The notes: generated by a model not told the origin, from the sequence alone. 64,000 nt of DNA from an uncultured Leptospirales bacterium (GCA_964491265.1 CAZBFP010000021.1:406-64405), one strand, 5' to 3'; positions 3,996 to 32,339 are shown, numbered from the stretch's first letter. Numbers and translations: made by a program.

Positions 3996-4382
3996 TTATA
4001 ACTATCATTAAAAGCTAAGACACAAAGGAATAGATGCGCCCGAAATCAACACAGATGAAGGGATTTTTCTTAATCAGCAGTTGCTGGATAATGGGCTGGC
4101 TATCAAGGCATAATTACACATAAATTTTTTTCAGCTCTGTCTAACATCAATAATCCCGTTTATCGTTGAAGGGGCCGGCCTCCTACAGGATTCTGGTTTA
4201 CCTGGGATATTCAAGGGGAATGTTTGGTGAGGTAGGGTGGTTTTTGGTATGGGGGAAGTCCTTCCACGCGACTGGAGCGGGCGAAGGGGTGCGCTAAATT
4301 AATATTGACATAAGCAATGAAATAATATATCAGATTTAACTATACAAAAATTAATTGTTGAGTAAATATAAAGAGGCGAAAA

Positions 4383-5558
4383 ATGCAATTAAACGTTTTT
4401 TTAAAACAGATATATGATATAACTAAATATCATGAAAATATAGCAAATATCACAGGAGAAAATTTCAATATATTTAGAATACTTGGACTATCAACTGATG
4501 AATTAAGCCATACATCATTTATTGCTTCACTCTTAAATCCTAAAGGAAGTCATGGCCGAGGGGAAGCATTTCTTGTATTATTTTTAGAAGAAGTTAATAT
4601 TCAAGACTTTAAAGTATTGAATGCGAAGCTTGAGAAAGAAAAAAATATCGGGCCAATTGACAGAGAATATCAAAATGGCGGTCAAATTGACATACTAATA
4701 ACAGATAATTCAAATAACCAAATTATTATTGAGAATAAAATATATGCAAAAGATCAAAAAAACCAACTCCTACGATATAGTAATTATAATAAAAAAGCAA
4801 AAATATTTTACTTAACTTTAGATGGAACCGATGCCAGTCCTTATAGTTTAGGCAGCTTAGGGTCAGAAAGTTATATAAGGATATCTTATAGTGAAACAAT
4901 TCTAAAATGGTTAGAAAAATGCAGAAAAGAATCGGCCAGTTTCCCTTTACTGCGGGAAACTATTTCGCAATACATTTTTTTACTAAAAAAAATAACCCAA
5001 CAAGCAAGGAGTCAGGAAATGGGAAATGATATAATTGGTACTATAATGAGCGATATAAAGAATATTGAATCAGCATTCTCAATAGCGAAGAATATGAAAA
5101 AGCTAAAAAAACAGATTATTATTACTAAATTATTACCTTCACTCAAGGAAATGGCAGAAAGAAATGAATTAGAATTTTCCTTAATTAATGATAATTATTT
5201 TGAAGCAAATTGGGGTTTTGATTTCAAAAAAGAAGAATGGAAGAATTATAAATTACGATTTAAATTTTTAGCTGCTGGTTTCAAAAATTTTATTTATGGC
5301 TTTAATAGTGATAATGACGTTTTAAAAATACATGATACACTGAAAGTGATTTCTGATACTGAATGGAAGGTGGGTATACAGACACGCGCATATAAATCTT
5401 TGGGAAATTATAGAGATTGGGATGACAAAGTTTTTATAATTTTATCTTCAGATAGATCAGAAAAAGAAAATGATTTAATAGAAATTATAGAAATAAAAAT
5501 TAAAGAATTATTAGCGTTAACTGAAAGATTTAAAGATGAAAAAGGATTAACATTATAG
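4383..5558 (+). CDS. PD-(D/E)XK nuclease superfamily protein (391 aa)
   Basis: Core GGQIDILITDNSNNQIIIENKIYAKDQKNQLLRY gives D...E-x-K. The N-terminal FRILGLSTDELSHTSFIASLLNPKGSHGRGEAFL block is typical of stand-alone PDDEXK proteins. RBS AAAGAGG lies upstream. The segment is extremely AT-rich (10 G/C in nt 4381-4440). Confidence 0.65.
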   Translation: MQLNVFLKQIYDITKYHENIANITGENFNIFRILGLSTDELSHTSFIASLLNPKGSHGRGEAFLVLFLEEVNIQDFKVLNAKLEKEKNIGPIDREYQNGGQIDILITDNSNNQIIIENKIYAKDQKNQLLRYSNYNKKAKIFYLTLDGTDASPYSLGSLGSESYIRISYSETILKWLEKCRKESASFPLLRETISQYIFLLKKITQQARSQEMGNDIIGTIMSDIKNIESAFSIAKNMKKLKKQIIITKLLPSLKEMAERNELEFSLINDNYFEANWGFDFKKEEWKNYKLRFKFLAAGFKNFIYGFNSDNDVLKIHDTLKVISDTEWKVGIQTRAYKSLGNYRDWDDKVFIILSSDRSEKENDLIEIIEIKIKELLALTERFKDEKGLTL

Positions 5559-5598: not shown

Positions 5599-6312
5599 TT
5601 AGACCGGAGTATCCACAAGAAAATGCTTTATTACAGATTTTATAGTTTCAAGAGGTGCTCTGTTTTGATATATTTCTGATACTTTGTAAATAGTCTCCAT
5701 TAAACTGCCAATTATTGAAAAATTCGGGGGTATTTTTTTAGCAATATCTTTTAACATTTCAACAGTAAAACGAAACAGATTCTCTTTTGCCAGCAGCTGG
5801 AGATAGGCTAGTCTGGATTCAAAACCGGGAGGATCTATTTTGATAATTAAACTGTTACCTTCCCTTAACAGTCCATGGTTGCCAAGTGTCATATTCAGTG
5901 GAGAATCACATGATGAAACAACAACCTGCTTACTTAAATGCTGAAGATGGGAAATTATATGCAATAATTCTTGTTGAGTTTCAGGTTTATCCTTTAAATA
6001 ATCCAGATCATCAATCAGGAGAATATCGGTATTACGGTATTTTACTTTAAATTCATTTTGTTTATTCATTTGTATAGAAGAAATAAACTCCTCAACTAAT
6101 ATGTTCACCGGTACATACTTTATGTCCATATCCGGCATGGTATTATATAAATGATTTTTTATAGCTTTTAAAAGATGACTTTTCCCAAGTCCGGATTTCC
6201 CATATAGAAAAAACGGATTAGAATTTCTCCTCGGAGGAGATGCTATTTCTTTGGCAATTGCATAAGCCAGTTTATTCTCGGGACATATAAAAAAATTTTC
6301 AAATGACTGCAT
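5599..6312 (-). CDS. DnaA-domain-III-only AAA+ ATPase (Hda-like architecture)
   Basis: FENFFICPENKLAYAIA, Walker A GKSGLGKSHLL, Walker B ILLIDDLDYL, TQQELLHIISHL and KQVVVSSCDSP are colinear with DnaA domain III. There is no domain I/II and no domain IV. Confidence 0.75.
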   Translation of the reverse strand: MQSFENFFICPENKLAYAIAKEIASPPRRNSNPFFLYGKSGLGKSHLLKAIKNHLYNTMPDMDIKYVPVNILVEEFISSIQMNKQNEFKVKYRNTDILLIDDLDYLKDKPETQQELLHIISHLQHLSKQVVVSSCDSPLNMTLGNHGLLREGNSLIIKIDPPGFESRLAYLQLLAKENLFRFTVEMLKDIAKKIPPNFSIIGSLMETIYKVSEIYQNRAPLETIKSVIKHFLVDTPV

Positions 6313-6335
6313 AATAATTCAACCTCATTATTAAA

Positions 6336-6836
6336 TCACAGATGTATGGTTAAAAAATTAATCATAATCCTGGCACATGCCAGGGCATCGGATAATGCAT
6401 TATGGTGTTCAAGTTCGATGCCGTAATGGAGACAGACTTTATCGAGAGAATTGCTTTTAAGTTTCAGCCTGTTTCTGGAGAGCTGTAATGAACATTTATA
6501 TTCTGCCCCGGGTATCTTAAGACCGTAGTGACTGCAGCATGTATCCATTACTGAGCGGTCAAAAGATGCGTTGTGAGCAGCGATAAAATCAGTTTTTTTA
6601 AAATATTTCTGAATATCTGGCCAGATATCATTGAAGGCTGGTTTGTCTTTTACATCTCTCCAGGTTATTCCATGAACACCTGTATAAACAAAATAATTCT
6701 CCGGAGGTTTTATCAGAGCATAGAATTGATCAGTGATAACAAAATTTTCTACAGAGACAATACTCAAGGCGCATGCGCTGTTCCTATTATTATTTGCAGT
6801 TTCAAAATCAAGGGCAATAAACCGGTTATTTTTCAA
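6336..6836 (-). CDS. DEDDh 3'-5' exonuclease, DnaQ/epsilon-like, stand-alone (166 aa)
   Basis: ExoI IALDFETAN, ExoII IAAHNASFDRSV, ExoIII HHNALSDALACARI. Confidence 0.85.
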   Translation of the reverse strand: MKNNRFIALDFETANNNRNSACALSIVSVENFVITDQFYALIKPPENYFVYTGVHGITWRDVKDKPAFNDIWPDIQKYFKKTDFIAAHNASFDRSVMDTCCSHYGLKIPGAEYKCSLQLSRNRLKLKSNSLDKVCLHYGIELEHHNALSDALACARIMINFLTIHL

Positions 6837-6860
6837 TTCTTATCTCCATAAATTAATACT

Positions 6861-7484
6861 TTATTCACCTATATTTCTCAGGAATAGAGGGTTCTTTATG
6901 AAACCCCATTTATTCCCTATACAGACAAGGGCTTTTCTGTTCCTGAAACTGAAGGCATTGTCAAAAACCGGATCTATAATCATTTCACCTTTTTTATCAA
7001 TAAAGCCGCTTTTCCAGTTAACAGATACTGCTGCCAGTCCTTCGGAGAAAGCTTGTGCATGGAGATATTGCGGCTTAATAACTATATTACCTTCTCCATC
7101 AGCAAAACCAAACATTTTTATTTCTGATATTATTTCATGTTTATTGATAATAACTGTTTCCCAATCTTTTACTGCAAACATTGTCAGTCCATCACTGAAG
7201 TCATCGGGGAATTCATCAAATTGCGGCTTAATTATCATTAAGCCCTGCCGGTTAATAAAGCCCCATTTATAATTATGAAGTACACATGCTAAACCTTCTG
7301 AAAAATCAAGAGCCGCATCAAATTGTGCATCTATTGCAATGTTTAATTCCTGATCAATATAACCCCACTTACCTTCAATGCGGAAAGATGCAAGCCCCTC
7401 ATGAAAATCGTCAATATGATCATACAGGGGCTCCATTACCCAGGAAACATTTTTGAATAATGATTTTTTTTGTCTATTTCTCAT
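6861..7484 (-). CDS. WG-repeat (KWG) containing protein, no signal peptide
   Basis: Repeated F.EGLA...KWGYID / YKWGFINRQG / WKSGFIDKKG / NKWGFIKN units. Confidence 0.8.
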   Translation of the reverse strand: MRNRQKKSLFKNVSWVMEPLYDHIDDFHEGLASFRIEGKWGYIDQELNIAIDAQFDAALDFSEGLACVLHNYKWGFINRQGLMIIKPQFDEFPDDFSDGLTMFAVKDWETVIINKHEIISEIKMFGFADGEGNIVIKPQYLHAQAFSEGLAAVSVNWKSGFIDKKGEMIIDPVFDNAFSFRNRKALVCIGNKWGFIKNPLFLRNIGE

Positions 7485-7529
7485 AATAAAATTAATAATA
7501 TGATAGTGATCTTCAAACTCACAGCATTG

Positions 7530-7781
7530 TTATAATGCTGGTGCATGCTTTCCCTTGTTTGAACCGTCCGGATGCCTTGAACAGGAGCTGGCAGTTAAAC
7601 TTGATATGCTAGAAAATTTAGTCCCGCAATACTTACAGAAATATTGAGGTTTCTCTCCACCTTCATAAAGCTTATGTTTACCTTTGTTTGAACCAGCGGG
7701 ATGCCTTGGACACGAACTTGCCGTTAAGCTTGAAATGCTTGATGCTTTATTCCCGCAATACTCACATATAAAATTTGCCAT
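7530..7781 (-). CDS. 83-aa protein made of two tandem Cys/His-rich repeats (putative Zn-binding)
   Basis: The two units are CEYCGNKASSISSLTASSCPRHPAGSNKGKH and CKYCGTKFSSISSLTASSCSRHPDGSNKGKH. It starts 8 nt downstream of the preceding gene's stop codon. Confidence 0.6.
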   Translation of the reverse strand: MANFICEYCGNKASSISSLTASSCPRHPAGSNKGKHKLYEGGEKPQYFCKYCGTKFSSISSLTASSCSRHPDGSNKGKHAPAL

Positions 7782-7789
7782 AATATCTC

Positions 7790-8083
7790 CTATATTCTTT
7801 TAATTTTGCTGCGTTGATTCTTCTCATGAAGTTCACGTAATGTATGATCTTCAAAAGTCCATAAGCTGAACAAATCTGATTCTTCATTAAAATCTTTACC
7901 CATGAGAACTCTTGTTGCACTTTTGATACTTCTTAATACACCGGATTCCCATTGAATTAAAGTACCTCCATTACCAGGGACTCCAGCACCTGAGCCTACT
8001 TTATATTCTACTTGAGCAGGTTCAAAAATAATAGTATCACCTATCTTTATACCAATTGTTCCGAAATCAATTTTATCATTCAT
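7790..8083 (-). CDS. Hypothetical 97-aa protein, first gene of the cassette; faint resemblance to DUF4357-type C-terminal modules
   Basis: Intact ORF. The SIKSATRVLMGK...LWTFEDHTLRELHE segment loosely recalls the S.SAAA.VVLG...W...TL.EL pattern. This is from memory only. Confidence 0.4.
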   Translation of the reverse strand: MNDKIDFGTIGIKIGDTIIFEPAQVEYKVGSGAGVPGNGGTLIQWESGVLRSIKSATRVLMGKDFNEESDLFSLWTFEDHTLRELHEKNQRSKIKRI

Positions 8084-8169
8084 AACCCGGACCCTTATTT
8101 TAAATTAAATTGCTGTATTGATAAGATGTAGTATTTAATTACCCTCCTGAATGATGAATAAAATTGTAC

Positions 8170-8186
8170 TTGTTATTTAATAACAA
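8170..8186. promoter_or_regulatory. Perfect 7-3-7 palindrome TTGTTAT-TTA-ATAACAA in the divergent promoter region; candidate operator
   Basis: Read directly in the 183-nt spacer between the cassette (start 8083) and the WYL gene (start 8267). Confidence 0.25.
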
Positions 8187-8266
8187 AGACACTATAGACT
8201 ATAAGCTTTATAAAAGATAGGAAATGATGTCCTACCTTAATTCATTCTTTAAGGATAAATAATTAT

Positions 8267-9220
8267 ATGGATGATCCAGCTCAAATAATATTTCCAAATC
8301 CTGAACGTAAAATCAACGTGCTTAAAAGATATCTGCATATACTTGCACTTCTGCAATTTACACCGGAAGGAAAAGATGCTGAACTATGGAATGCCAACAA
8401 ACTCGCTGAACTTTTATCATATGATGATACAGGTAAAACCCTGGACGACAGCCAGATAAGAAAATATATTCAGGTGAACATTATTAAAGAACTTGGCATT
8501 GAAGTTGATAAGACTAAAGGTAAACACTCAATGTCACTTGCAGAAGATATCGATCCAGAAACTCAACTCATGATAGCGAAAGTATATTCCGGCTTCGTTG
8601 TTAAAGATGCAACAAGAGATATAATACTTAAAAAGTTTATTAACTCAATGCCTGACAGGGCTCTCTGGACTTTAGCGAGGGTATATTTTGCAATAGTTGA
8701 AAAAAGAAGAATACAGTTTAATTATACTACCAATACAGGCTACAAAATTAATAGATGGGAACTCTGTCCTTATTATTTTATGCTAAGAAACAATAACCTT
8801 TATCTTGTGGTATGGGACCCGGTACAAGAAAAGCATATACCTTTACTTGCAGAAAGAATAAAGAAACTTAAAGTACTTACATATGATAAGAAAAAGGAAT
8901 GGAATATAATTCCTGTAGAAGAACTTTTCAAAGATTCTTTAAGCGCTTTTATCTCAGATAATCCGACAGCCAAAATGAAGATCCGATATAAAAAGAAAAT
9001 AGGTGTTCAAATTACTAATCTGATAAGCTTCTTCGAACCTGAAATTAAATCCCTTGATAACGGAGACTGGCTTGAGTCAACATTTAATATTACAGATTAT
9101 CTTTATCTATGCCAGCAGTTAGTTATTTACGGCAGTGATGTTGAAATATTATCCCCACCTCACGTAAGGAAAACCATGATTACAATGTTGAAAAGCAGTT
9201 TGAAGGCTTATGAGTCTTAG
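8267..9220 (+). CDS. WYL-domain transcriptional regulator (wHTH-WYL-WCX layout, BrxR/CapW-like)
   Basis: N-terminal HTH-like LKRYLHILALL...KLAELL...IRKYIQ..IIKELGIEV. WYL core IQFNYTT...RWELCPYYFMLRNNNLYLVVWD...LLAERIKKLKVL. C-terminal LVIYGSDVEILSPPHVRKTMITML. Confidence 0.72.
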   Translation: MDDPAQIIFPNPERKINVLKRYLHILALLQFTPEGKDAELWNANKLAELLSYDDTGKTLDDSQIRKYIQVNIIKELGIEVDKTKGKHSMSLAEDIDPETQLMIAKVYSGFVVKDATRDIILKKFINSMPDRALWTLARVYFAIVEKRRIQFNYTTNTGYKINRWELCPYYFMLRNNNLYLVVWDPVQEKHIPLLAERIKKLKVLTYDKKKEWNIIPVEELFKDSLSAFISDNPTAKMKIRYKKKIGVQITNLISFFEPEIKSLDNGDWLESTFNITDYLYLCQQLVIYGSDVEILSPPHVRKTMITMLKSSLKAYES

Positions 9221-9782
9221 TTTTTTAAAATCACTTTAAAAGCAAAACATTACAACCTTATATTGAAATGCCGGTCTGATGAAAGATTCTGGTTTTAAGC
9301 TTCTCCGGCGATTAAAACATGTTTTTCGTTTTGTCCGCTGAAATGTTTTTCAAATACATCGAGTCCTTTTACCAAATAAATCCCTCCATCAAAACGGACG
9401 GTATTCTTTTTTAAAATTGAATACAAAACAAGTAACTGTGTTGCTGTCGATGAGGCGGCATTTTGTTTTTCTGTCGTTTGCGAAGTACATGCCCCCGAAA
9501 ATCTTATCTCACTCCCCCCGTACCTGCCCTCTCTCCGTAAGGGCGCTCCCCCGTGGTATTTTTTTGACACATTTATACTACTTTAGAATTGAGAAAATAT
9601 AAATATGAACAGGAATTTACTAATCCCCCTCCGGGGGAAGCCGGAATAAGTTTATTCAGCACACCCGGTTAATCGGCTGGGGGCCGGGGAAATAAATGCG
9701 AGTAGAAGTTATACGAAGAAGGGCCAGAGATGAGGCCTTATATATCACCCCCCCTCCTTTTTCACCCGCTTCATCCCGAATC

Positions 9783-30038: not shown

Positions 30039-32339
30039 CTATACCCCCTTTCCAAGTGAACGGCTCTGATTTAAATCTTCAGCAGCGGGGAATATTACCC
30101 CATCGCTTCCATGAATATTGTCAGTTTTAAACTTTGCTTTTTTCTCTTTCTGAATAGCGAGATATTCCTTCTCATCTATTTTAACAATATTCACTGCGCT
30201 CACCTTGAGTTCAGGGATTTTGCAAACCGGGTCAAGTCCATTGGGATTGGTCAGCTCATTTACATTAGCCTCCCAGTAATGGAAACTGCCGAAAACATGG
30301 TTGGCTTTAATTCTATCCATAACCCTGGCTTTGGCCGCAATGTAACCCCTTTCATTTTCCAGTTTAATATAGTCACCCTGTGCTACACCAAGTTTCTTAG
30401 CTGACTCAATACCCACTTCAATAACCGCAGGACCGAACATATCAGCGCCTGTTTCCAGAGATTTACATTTACGCGTCATTGTACCTGTATGATACTGATA
30501 AACATAACGCCCCGAAGTAAGTATAAAGGGGTACCTTTCAGATGCTGCCTCATTAAGAGAGCCTGCCATCACAGGGTAATCCTTATCCAGATTGAGTTTC
30601 TTCCTCAGTTCCGCCTCCAGTGTTCCCTTTTTATTATTGTCCTCTGTAAAGACAACAGGGATAAGGAGAGCCTTACCATCCGGCGTAGAAAGCTTCGGCC
30701 CCTCATAAAGTACAGGTGTTCCGGGATGCTGATGATTGGGACAGGGCGCATTAAGGCCGTTAAGATCCTTAAGCCTCCTTATATCCATCCCGCCGAACTG
30801 ATTCCTGTTTATTGTCCTGATTTCATCCCATATATTCCTTGCGTCCCTGTAATCAAATCCCGGTTCCTCCATCCTTTCCGCAAGCATGGAAATAATCTCC
30901 CAGTCAGCCTTAGCTTCCCCCGGCGCGGTTATTGCCTGGTTTACCAGCTGGACACGTCTGGAAGTATTTACAAAGGTCCCCTCCTTCTCCGCGAAAGCAG
31001 CGGCAGGGAGAACCATATCCGACTTGAGACATGTTTCAGTCATGAAGATGTCCTGGGTTACCATAAACTCCAGTCCATCCAGGGAATGCGCGAAATGATT
31101 TGAGTCCGGGTCAGACATCATGGGATTCTCCCCCATGACCCAGAGAAATTTAATATTACCGTTTTCAATATTTTCCGGAAGAACAGTCAAAGCTATTCCC
31201 GGTTTGGAAGGCACATCACAGCACCAGAGATCACCGCACTCAGTCCTTGCCGCCTCATCCACCACAGGTTTGCCGCTTGCAAGCACAGTGGGTAGAGCCC
31301 CTACCATACATGCGCCCTGAACATTATTCTGCCCGCGGAGAGGATTAACTCCACCCCCCTTGATTCCGAGATTCCCGGTAATAGCTGCCAGATTAGAAGT
31401 GGTCCATACGTTACCGGTACCATGTGAAAACTGGGTCATGCCCATGGCATACAGAATTGCCGAAGGTTTTGAACCGGCAAACATACGTGCCGCTTCGATG
31501 ATAAGTTCAGGGTCGATCCCTGTTATGCCTGATACATATTCTGGGGTATAATCTTTAACTGATTCCTTAAGATATTCAAAACCCTTTGTATGATTTACCA
31601 CAAAATCCTTATCATAGAGGTTTTCGCTGATGATCACATTTATCAGAGAATTCATAACAGGAATATTATATCCGGGAGGGACCTGGAGAAAAATGTCAGC
31701 CTTGTTGGCCATCTCAGTTTTCCTGGGATCTATTACAATCAGCTTTGCCCCGTTTTCGAGTCCCCTGAAAACGTGCATACCTACTATGGGGTGATTTTCA
31801 CTTGTGTTTGAACCTGTTATTAAAAAGCATTTTGTGTATATTCCGAATTCCGCAAGATCATTAGTCATTGATCCGTTTCCAAGACTCTTAGCCAGACCGG
31901 CTACAGTTGGAGCGTGTCAGAGGCGGGCACAGTGATCAACATTGTTTGTTCCCAGAGCCTGCCTGAAAAATTTCTGAAAAACATAATTCTCTTCGTTTGT
32001 GCATCTTGCTGATGAAAGCCCCATAAACGAATCAGGGCCATAGGTTTGTTTTACAAACCCTATTTTCTCTTTTAATAGATCCAGTGCTTCATCCCATTCA
32101 GATTCCTCAAGCAATCCATTCTTTGAAAAAGCACCATTAAGTTTTCTGATTAAAGGTTTCTGTAGACGTTCTGATGAATGAACAAACTCCCATCCATAAA
32201 GTCCCTTAAGGCACAACTCGCCGTCATTGACAGGATGATTCATTGTTGGCGCAGCTTTTACAATCCTGTTATTATCCACATGCAGATCCATATTGCAGCC
32301 TGTTCCGCAGTATGGGCATGTTGTCTGAACTTTTTTCAT
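30039..32339 (-). CDS. fdhF: Selenocysteine-containing formate dehydrogenase H (single CDS joining the two listed ORFs through in-frame UGA at 31919..31917)
   Basis: N-terminal MKKVQTTCPYCGTGCNMDL. The sequence ...NNVDHCARL-[TGA][19 protein letters not shown]... is colinear with E. coli FdhH ...NNVDCCARV-U-HGPSVAGL.... RBS AGGGGG lies before ATG 32339. Confidence 0.9.
31879..31919 (-). promoter_or_regulatory. UGA(Sec) codon plus candidate bacterial SECIS hairpin
   Basis: mRNA reads UGA CACGCU CCAACUG UAGCC GGUCU GGCUA AGAGUC UUGG. It forms a 5-bp upper stem with a GGUCU apical loop (the same loop sequence I recall from E. coli fdhF SECIS) and a lower CCAA/UUGG stem. Confidence 0.6.

Follow-up and report, generated by a model that had tools for sequence, protein, structure and literature searches.

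A conserved WYL-regulator-linked gene cassette from an uncultured Leptospirales bacterium, a candidate new member of the WYL-regulated defense-island operons

RESULTS

Layout of the locus

We analyzed a 64,000-nucleotide (nt) stretch of DNA from an uncultured Leptospirales bacterium (GCA_964491265.1, CAZBFP010000021.1:406-64405), referred to here as the window, and in it a six-gene block at positions 5599 to 9220 that an earlier note, made from the sequence alone, had proposed as an uncharacterized defense system. The block consists of a gene for a WYL-type transcription regulator (R) and, divergent from it, five minus-strand open reading frames (ORFs), A to E. Both the coordinates of these ORFs, with intergenic gaps of 8, 45, 24, and 23 nt, and the 183-nt spacer between R and A were reproduced in our analysis; public gene callers start C 16 codons later, which shortens its product to 191 amino acids (aa) and widens the B-C gap to 93 nt. 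As the note had stated, the block is AT-rich, with a GC content of 0.29 to 0.37 over 4 to 9 kb versus 0.41 to 0.46 in the adjoining housekeeping genes. The features are as follows.

8267..9220, plus strand: R, WYL-WCX transcription regulator of 317 aa, divergent from the operon
8218..8234, unstranded: palindrome TAGGAAATGATGTCCTA (TAGGA-N7-TCCTA), a candidate operator at a distance of 33 nt before the start codon of R
8084..8266, unstranded: R-A spacer, a 183-nt AT-rich divergent promoter region
7790..8083, minus strand: A, 97 aa, first gene of the operon, with a SAND/CcrM-C-terminal-domain-like predicted fold; probable DNA binder
7530..7781, minus strand: B, tandem C2CH zinc-finger protein of 83 aa
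6861..7484, minus strand: C, WG-repeat protein of 207 aa (191 aa from the later start)
6336..6836, minus strand: D, DEDDh 3'-5' exonuclease of 166 aa with a complete catalytic set
5599..6312, minus strand: E, DnaA-domain-III-only AAA+ ATPase of 237 aa, in a variable last slot
4383..5558, plus strand: PDDEXK_4 nuclease of 391 aa, convergent with E, a likely associated component

The cassette is conserved beyond close relatives

Other loci were reached via homologues of A and of E. Labels such as L001 or L009 denote other contigs; in the following list, WG stands for the WG-repeat gene and exo for the exonuclease gene.

L133: all six genes, at 95 to 96% identity (exonuclease, E, and A compared), with a different gene beyond E
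L009: R divergent from A-B-WG-exo, then a Zn-peptidase-like gene
L010: R divergent from A-B-206aa-WG-exo, then a 166-aa gene and a gene like that for uracil-DNA glycosylase (UDG)
L136: PDDEXK_4 and R, divergent from A-B-157aa-exo
L134/L135: XRE-peptidase_M78 regulator in place of R, then A-B-WG-exo
L109 to L111: A-DnaA-like-WG, with R convergent
L001: WG-DnaA-like, then a convergent PDDEXK_4 gene

Among the more diverged loci (L009, L010, L109, L134, and L136), identities range from 44 to 84%, synonymous sites are saturated (dS of >1), and dN/dS is 0.07 to 0.4 throughout, even for the short genes A and B. L001 and L133 are more closely related, with dS values of 0.28 to 0.49 where measured. 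Since the order is kept over saturated synonymous divergence, it is not limited to close relatives and recurs in unrelated metagenome contigs, and together with the dN/dS ratios this indicates that the ORFs are real genes. Counterparts in the shared order are 50 to 95% identical over L009, L010, L133, L134/L135, and L136, and chance does not account for the cluster. The cassette is thus a conserved unit found in differing genomic contexts, among restriction, toxin-antitoxin, and candidate defense genes. Its conserved core is R/A/B/WG/exo, and the occupant of the last slot varies (DnaA-domain-III ATPase, Zn-peptidase-like, or UDG-like). On this point the earlier note has to be revised: the DnaA-like ATPase does not belong to the core, its slot being filled by other genes in L009 and L010. 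A second DnaA-like lineage has nevertheless recurred independently together with A, WG, and R.

L009 and L010 also share a gene for single-stranded DNA-binding protein (SSB) near the cassette, which in L009 adjoins R. Downstream, the two loci (L009, 11679 to 13321; L010, 7388 to 9025) have in common a secreted SNase-type nuclease (71% identity) and an unknown protein of 275 to 291 aa (74%), a pair that hints at a larger shared island or element. Proteins of ~210 to 250 aa with a weak match to the UDG superfamily and the N-terminal motif hhhGES.Y (L010, 6183 to 6818; L133, 3859 to 4614; L106, 468 to 1091; L084, 10330 to 11043) recur beside A, beside B, and beside the cassette.

Regulator and candidate operator

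R matches the Pfam WYL family (PF13280; E value of 2e-8, above the gathering score), the PADLOC WYL model (3e-20), and the Pfam WCX family (PF25583; E value of 1.3e-6, 29.1 bits versus a cutoff of 23.9), and it is 54 to 83% identical to the regulators in the same position in L009, L010, L136, and L109. Its residues 1 to 120 gave no helix-turn-helix (HTH) family at an E value of <0.1 in a Pfam scan; the region is strongly conserved and helical-looking by eye. Of the domain calls in the earlier note, WYL and WCX in R, the Cys/His repeats of B, the WG repeats of C, the DEDDh domain of D, and the DnaA domain III of E were all recovered by Pfam, PADLOC, and NCBIfam comparisons, and the N-terminal winged HTH (wHTH) of R is a call that no tool could confirm. 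Searches of PDB sequences found no sequence link of R to BrxR, CapW, or DriD. Judged by its sequence, R is a distant member of the wHTH-WYL-WCX layout class, outside any characterized subfamily.

The palindrome TAGGA-N7-TCCTA has a single match within the whole window, and an alignment of the spacers from three diverged loci (the window, L009, and L010) places it 30 to 34 nt before the start of R in each. In L109, where R and the A operon are not divergent, near-copies are found both before A (TAGGAAATGACTTACTA) and before R (AGGTAACCATTTCCT), which is the pattern expected of a shared operator. Besides the palindrome, the spacer alignment contains two conserved blocks, CACTATAGACTAT and TACAAT/TATAAT. 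The latter lies on the minus strand (plus-strand coordinates 8163 to 8168), and promoter-like matches were also computed in the spacer; we take these as putative promoters. Regulation by R at the predicted operator is well supported by the comparative evidence. The palindrome was also compared with the noncanonical LexA box of Bacteroidetes (GGA-N5-TCC; PMC8565304), from which it differs in having 7 nt between GGA and TCC.

Directly upstream of A-B-WG-exo in L134 (1669 to 2715) and L135, the place of the WYL regulator is taken by an HTH_3 plus Peptidase_M78 (ImmA/IrrE-type, XRE) regulator. XRE-M78 regulators of the ImmA/IrrE type are a class known from damage- and phage-responsive switches, and the swap in L134 fits an inducible operon. 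The WYL control put forward in the earlier note needs to be corrected in this respect, in that the WYL regulator can be exchanged for one of the XRE-M78 class.

Products of the operon

Protein A matches no Pfam family. Its AlphaFold2 (AF2) model (predicted local distance difference test [pLDDT] score of 84) has as its best Foldseek match the C-terminal domain (CTD) of CcrM bound to DNA (6pbd_A; TMq of 0.62, root mean square deviation of 2.7 over 96 columns, probability of 0.99, and E value of 0.07), followed by SAND domains (TMq of 0.48 to 0.51; E values of at least 0.65). These models are suggestive of a SAND/CcrM-CTD-like fold of the DNA-binding type. With 64 representatives among 1.84 billion proteins, this is a small family, and some of its members are fused to DnaB_C/KaiC-type or AAA_5 ATPases, the AAA_5 fusion being P0207; another A-domain fusion, P0149, also has a weak UDG match. 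In L012 to L014, a stand-alone A lies downstream of McrB-McrC.

Protein B is built of two repeats of the form CxxC-x14-CxxH-PxGxNKGKH, whose Cys and His residues are invariant in the alignment; its sequence has weak C2H2 similarity only, and its AF2 model has a pLDDT of 86. Protein C matches Pfam WG_beta_rep (1.7e-48) over five repeats, lacks a signal peptide, and is 44 to 74% identical to its counterparts in L001, L009, L010, L109, and L134.

Protein D matches Pfam RNase_T (2e-17), PADLOC DEDDh (3e-28), and, in NCBIfam, an epsilon-like N-terminal half, and it is 69 to 95% identical to its counterparts in L009, L010, L133, L135, and L136. Its translation contains LDFETA (DxE), HNASFD (NxxFD), and HHNALSD (Hx4D), and with this complete set of catalytic motifs the protein probably degrades 3' ends. 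D also matches the exonuclease domain of the DEDDh-containing single-gene PADLOC family PDC-S48 (1e-25; profile positions 1 to 168 of 411); full-length members of that family have 411 to 512 aa, and D, at 166 aa, lacks their C-terminal part of ~240 aa.

Protein E matches Pfam Bac_DnaA (8e-43) and covers positions 109 to 339 of the 437 of TIGR00362. Compared with domain III of Bacillus subtilis DnaA (8bv3), it keeps the Walker A (GKSGLGKS) and Walker B (LLIDDLD) motifs and the box VII Arg finger, and its sensor II Arg is replaced. DnaA domains I, II, and IV are absent, with no Bac_DnaA_C match. So is a beta-clamp motif of the QL[SD]LF or QLxLxL type; the N terminus, MQSFENFFICPENKLA, is a canonical domain III start after two residues. 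Because it lacks these domains and the clamp-binding motif, E is neither DnaA nor Hda. It resembles Hda in standing alone as a DnaA-type AAA+ protein of ~235 aa that has both Walker motifs and the Arg finger. Unlike Hda, it is devoid of a clamp-binding motif at its N terminus, has another residue in place of the sensor II Arg, and scores better as DnaA (177 bits) than as Hda (TIGR03420; 70 bits against a cutoff of 194.8), so that an identity as Hda was rejected. It also differs in belonging to a very rare family (six relatives were found) inside an accessory AT-rich cassette. In L109 to L111, a DnaA-like gene adjoins A; its product in L109 is only 23% identical to E and yet has a clear Bac_DnaA domain (8e-39), and there the gene overlaps A by 8 nt.

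In L002 (5701 to 11992) lies the gene for the remotest relative of E (30% identity, 225 aa); it overlaps the end of a gene for a 1,096-aa SNF2-family helicase and is followed by genes for a 368-aa protein and a DUF2201 protein, beside DUF4062 and Y_phosphatase3 genes. By its gene content, L002 looks like another uncharacterized defense-like operon with a DnaA-like ATPase.

Protein B belongs to a wider gene network

Relatives of B fall into more than 850 clusters at 72 to 86% identity. There were 394 matches among 185,579 species genomes, mostly in Bacteroidota, followed by Brachyspira, Treponema, and Lentisphaerota/Verrucomicrobiota, with a few in Bacillota and Desulfovibrionaceae. Across Bacteroidota, Spirochaetota, and other phyla the protein is 65 to 85% identical, and in one Brachyspira pilosicoli genome it is present in multiple copies with varying neighbors. 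It is also encoded on a mobilizable Myroides plasmid, where it adjoins DUF262, IS91, and a tyrosine recombinase.

When the genes within six positions of B were clustered for 72 loci, WYL regulators of a subfamily other than that of R were found in 24, a GmrSD-like protein in 20 (and a second GmrSD_N protein in 14), and a DEDDh exonuclease in 19. Two families of AAA ATPases occurred in 11 and 7 loci, respectively; PDDEXK_4 in 11, immediately after B in 7 of them; a metallophosphoesterase in 7; and WG-repeat proteins and UDG-like proteins in 5 each. Among 92 otherwise unlabeled genes codirectional with B, 6 encode dynamin-family proteins matching LeoA/LeoBC (Eleos); other codirectional neighbors are further PDDEXK_4 genes, HsdR, and McrBC. 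B is mostly the first gene of its array, and the partner families are enriched close to it within the same 72 loci, by a control that is conservative and partly circular. The cassette in the window is a rare subtype within this much larger network centered on B and the DEDDh exonuclease.

Two upstream elements of B were also observed. In Bacteroidota, B genes have a leader, GCYGAAAAC-N4-6-AGAGTARGC, 21 to 26 nt upstream of the ATG, which matches Rfam RF02914 (DUF805b RNA, a candidate cis-regulatory motif). The gathering score of 42 bits is exceeded by two copies, and the others reach 25 to 35 bits; sites include L089 (3171 to 3203), L093 (4672 to 4704), L021 (188 to 221), L042 (2842 to 2874), L131 (8946 to 8979), and L025 (9951 to 9981). 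Such a leader precedes B in ~24 loci, a few of which have a second copy before another gene. A further block, CGACA-N4-TTGRC-NGAC, lies upstream of B in L021, L022, L025, L049, L050, L083, L097, and others, and overlaps a Bacteroidota-type -33/-7 promoter (TAnnTTTG) ahead of the leader. Promoter, leader, and B seem to travel as one unit ahead of variable cargo. In L018 to L020, from gut metagenomes, the gene for B diverges from that for a 994-aa helicase of the UvrD type that carries a Top1 zinc ribbon, and the neighbors of B there (DUF2828 [vWA], RtcB, a WCX-containing 313-aa protein, and RlaP) give the neighborhood an RNA-repair-type look.

Comparison with phages, plasmids, and named defense systems

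B had no match in 50,697 phage records, one close relative (83%) and seven weak matches (29 to 36% identity) in 2.9 million IMG/VR viral contigs, and five matches in 72,556 plasmids. A had no match in the same phage and plasmid collections, and the matches of E in phage records reflect generic DnaA-level similarity (30 to 36%). With A and B essentially absent from phages and A from plasmids, a phage or plasmid replication module was rejected as the main explanation; the cassette is not embedded in prophage replication regions. Nor does the block contain a replication initiator with a DNA-binding domain, a helicase, a primase, or origin-like repeats.

Against the hidden Markov models (HMMs) of PADLOC-DB v2, the block gave only generic matches, namely, DEDDh and WYL (cas-associated), and a weak match of A to PDC-S57; B and C matched no model. 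The earlier note had matched this composition to no named system, and we likewise found none, either with the PADLOC v2 HMMs or in the literature on WG-repeat proteins, PDDEXK_4/PDC, WYL with DEDDh, and DnaA-like proteins in defense.

The PDDEXK_4 gene and the island

The PD-(D/E)XK gene, which the earlier note had called solitary, matches Pfam PDDEXK_4 (2e-35) and is a full-length PADLOC PDC-S26 (PDLC04980; 2.5e-101, residues 3 to 380 against profile positions 6 to 382 of 389). Its counterpart in L136 (246 to 1421), beside R on the other side of the cassette, is 72% identical, about as conserved as the cassette itself, which argues that the two travel together. In L001 (1674 to 2822), the third arrangement in which a PDDEXK_4 gene flanks the cassette genes, it follows a DnaA-like gene that is 77% identical to E and is itself only 32% identical to the window copy, which suggests replacement or fast divergence at this position. 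With its occurrence near B as well, in 11 of 72 loci, the gene can hardly be called solitary. PDC-S26 and PDC-S48 are candidate families only, and neither includes an A, B, WG, DnaA-like, or WYL gene.

To the left of the cassette lie hsdM, RhuM (PADLOC PDC-S05), an HsdR fragment, an unknown 132-aa gene, and the PDDEXK_4 gene. The decayed type I restriction-modification (R-M) locus reported earlier is indeed present: there is an hsdM and no hsdS, and a 284-aa fragment corresponds only to the last 260 residues of HsdR (REase_I positions 715 to 973 of 976). A possible remnant of an SNase C terminus at ~4057 to 4113 was unsupported by tblastn. Sister strains with identical cassettes (L003 to L007) differ just past hsdM, beyond the left end of the window, where they have HigB/HigA, PIN/FitA-like pairs, or a split tyrosine recombinase together with IS91 (Y2 transposase), the last accompanied in some cases by a reverse transcriptase. 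This region is a strain-variable hotspot. The same pair of IS91 and tyrosine recombinase is found near B on the Myroides plasmid. In other loci with the cassette or with A, defense-type genes include GmrSD, type ISP R-M, HsdR, and McrBC.

DISCUSSION

Judging from its sequence and distribution, the six-gene block is a so far undescribed conserved module, and we consider it a candidate new member of the WYL-regulated defense-island operons. Our preferred interpretation, to which we assign a probability of roughly 0.55, is that it belongs to a modular and inducible system that moves horizontally and lives in defense islands, and of which it is one arrangement; defense would be its presumed function. 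The earlier note had named three computational outcomes that would speak against its proposal (a gene order confined to close relatives, a constant prophage replication setting, and a hit to a named system), and we encountered none of them; with the corrections given above, we regard its interpretation as partly supported.

The block shares with the BrxR/CapW-type WYL repressors (PMC9122601, PMC9122588, PMC11662680) the combination of WYL and WCX, a regulator gene at the edge of a defense-type operon, an inverted repeat placed after the presumed promoter and ahead of the regulator's start codon, and a setting among R-M and other defense genes. However, R is without detectable sequence similarity to any solved WYL regulator, and the genes presumably regulated here (SAND-like, zinc-finger, WG-repeat, DEDDh, and DnaA-like) are not those of BREX, CBASS, or any named system. 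There are also likenesses to type IV GmrSD/McrBC loci, in that A follows McrBC, one protein (P0207) joins an A-like domain to an AAA_5 ATPase, and B heads operons with GmrSD-like pairs; the cassette in the window differs in having neither a GmrSD nor an McrBC gene, its nuclease being the DEDDh exonuclease.

In the mechanism that we envisage, a dimer of R would bind TAGGA-N7-TCCTA between the divergent promoters and repress both its own gene and the A-E operon, as the conservation of the operator and its duplication in the rearranged locus suggest. A nucleic acid signal, most likely single-stranded DNA from phage replication or DNA damage, would then bind the WYL domain and release expression. 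We draw this step by analogy from CapW, BrxR, DriD, and PafBC: BrxR is described as binding an inverted repeat that lies after its promoter and ahead of its gene (PMC9122601), DriD and PafBC as governing damage responses via single-stranded DNA (PMC9186387, PMC11804915), and CapW as responding, like these two, to single-stranded DNA. The ligand of R and its mode, as repressor or activator, are likewise putative and taken from the WYL class. Once expressed, A (SAND/CcrM-CTD-like) and B (double zinc finger) may bind DNA or a DNA-associated target; for B, whose model found no informative structural match, the role is a guess. The WG-repeat protein C may serve as a scaffold or sensor, and the DEDDh exonuclease D, given its catalytic motifs, would chew the 3' ends of target DNA, with the adjoining PDDEXK_4 nuclease as a frequent partner. 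More speculatively, the variable last gene could be an exchangeable effector or adaptor, and E, which keeps its Arg finger, might form assemblies on single-stranded DNA or else disturb DnaA-dependent initiation.

Several of our results weigh against this interpretation. R had no match to BrxR, CapW, DriD, or PafBC when phmmer and a five-sequence profile were run against all PDB sequences at an E value of ≤10. The fold match of A is marginal by its E value (0.07), the model of B found no informative structural match in PDB or BFVD, only generic C2H2-like fingers, and the comparison with PADLOC v2 was made at the HMM level only. The window-type arrangement with A and R is rare: none of the 80 best genome loci for B has it. 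In the product of the DnaA-like gene of L109, Walker B is degenerate and the finger position lacks an Arg, so that the role proposed for E would not be general. Finally, several components (the epsilon-like exonuclease, the UDG-like genes, and the DnaA-like ATPase) fit DNA repair equally well, and so do some of the neighbors, namely, the SSB gene beside R in L009 and the UvrD-like helicase and RtcB beside B in L018 to L020.

These last points also favor the main rival explanation, in which the block is an accessory, SOS-independent DNA-damage or replication-stress operon with a single-stranded-DNA-sensing regulator; the exonuclease, the DNA-binding proteins, and the DnaA-like ATPase would process damaged ends and pause replication initiation, and the location in islands would be incidental to horizontal transfer. 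The M78 regulator that replaces WYL in L134 is of a damage-responsive class, and E retains the Arg finger by which Hda acts on DnaA. Moreover, DriD and PafBC, as described, control damage responses through single-stranded DNA (PMC9186387, PMC11804915). However, the spread is sporadic (B is found in 394 of 185,579 species and, in Brachyspira pilosicoli, in several copies with varying neighbors), the co-operonic partners are restriction-type nucleases (GmrSD, PDDEXK_4, McrBC, and HsdR) and dynamin/Eleos proteins rather than canonical repair genes, and the arrays contain no recA, uvr, or polymerase genes. We consider a damage response unlikely, albeit a serious contender. The shuffling of module content between loci and the many alternative partners of B might instead be taken to mean that the islands merely colocate independent single-gene functions (a PDC-S48-like exonuclease, PDC-S26, and a regulator) that have no joint mechanism. 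Against this stand the order and tight spacing of A-B-WG-exo, kept over saturated synonymous divergence, the 8 nt shared by A and the DnaA-like gene in L109, and the operator shared before A and R, and we find the idea very improbable.

It might also be asked whether the block serves not the host but an integrative/conjugative element or plasmid whose cargo it is, through replication control, entry exclusion, or antirestriction. The low GC content of the block would fit such an origin, as would the integrase, IS91, and reverse transcriptase just past the island in sister strains, the SSB, secreted SNase, and 275- to 291-aa protein shared near the cassette by L009 and L010, and the mobilizable Myroides plasmid on which B lies beside DUF262, IS91, and a tyrosine recombinase; domains of the DnaA-like and epsilon-like kinds are, in addition, of the replication type. 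Yet the flanks differ in each locus, with no common element backbone, and the block lacks a DNA-binding initiator, helicase, primase, and origin-like repeats. Moreover, B is represented by no phage record, one close relative among the viral contigs, and five plasmid matches, and A by none. A cargo role is possible and weakly supported, and we judge it improbable. The degraded replication module that the earlier note had raised as its main alternative is not supported, given that the genes are under purifying selection, not degraded, and that A and B are absent from phage records.

Returning to the reading of the block as an inducible defense-island system, a bolder form of it can be formulated, although we think it doubtful and would not be surprised to see it fail. 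The cassette would belong to a large unrecognized family of inducible immune or stress modules in which B, as a universal component, and the DEDDh exonuclease stand under single-stranded-DNA-sensing WYL or XRE-M78 regulators with exchangeable effectors, and E would act as a mobile Hda, inserting its Arg finger into DnaA or into the filament of a phage initiator and thereby shutting down replication initiation on infection. If so, this would be a defense mechanism aimed at the initiator itself, and a DnaA-paralogue effector would link immunity to the control of replication initiation. Should the cassette prove protective against phages or plasmids, the defense repertoire would gain a system of unusual composition (SAND-like DNA binder, WG-repeat protein, and DnaA-like ATPase), and B, the head of operons with GmrSD, PDDEXK_4, DEDDh, AAA, and dynamin genes, would acquire a first function; B is in any case an additional and broader lead beyond the cassette. 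The exchange of two damage-sensing regulator classes before the same genes is, moreover, a natural experiment on how island genes are switched.

Other features of the window

The 560 nt between R and argB (9221 to 9782) contain no convincing gene, and some assemblies call a 91-aa ORF there. The stretch has a terminator-like hairpin at 9442 to 9460 and odd GC-rich sequence and is possibly the island boundary. A tRNA or known RNA was considered as a marker of the island edge; the window contains no tRNA and no match to any Rfam family.

On the minus strand, a formate dehydrogenase alpha gene (30039 to 32330) has an in-frame TGA at 31917 to 31919, within VDHCARL*HAP, which we take to be the expected selenocysteine position. 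The gene adjoins those for hydrogenase-4-type subunits, which suggests a formate-hydrogenlyase-like cluster at 21.2 to 31.9 kb, and the housekeeping genes of the window indicate an anaerobe with a cluster of this type.

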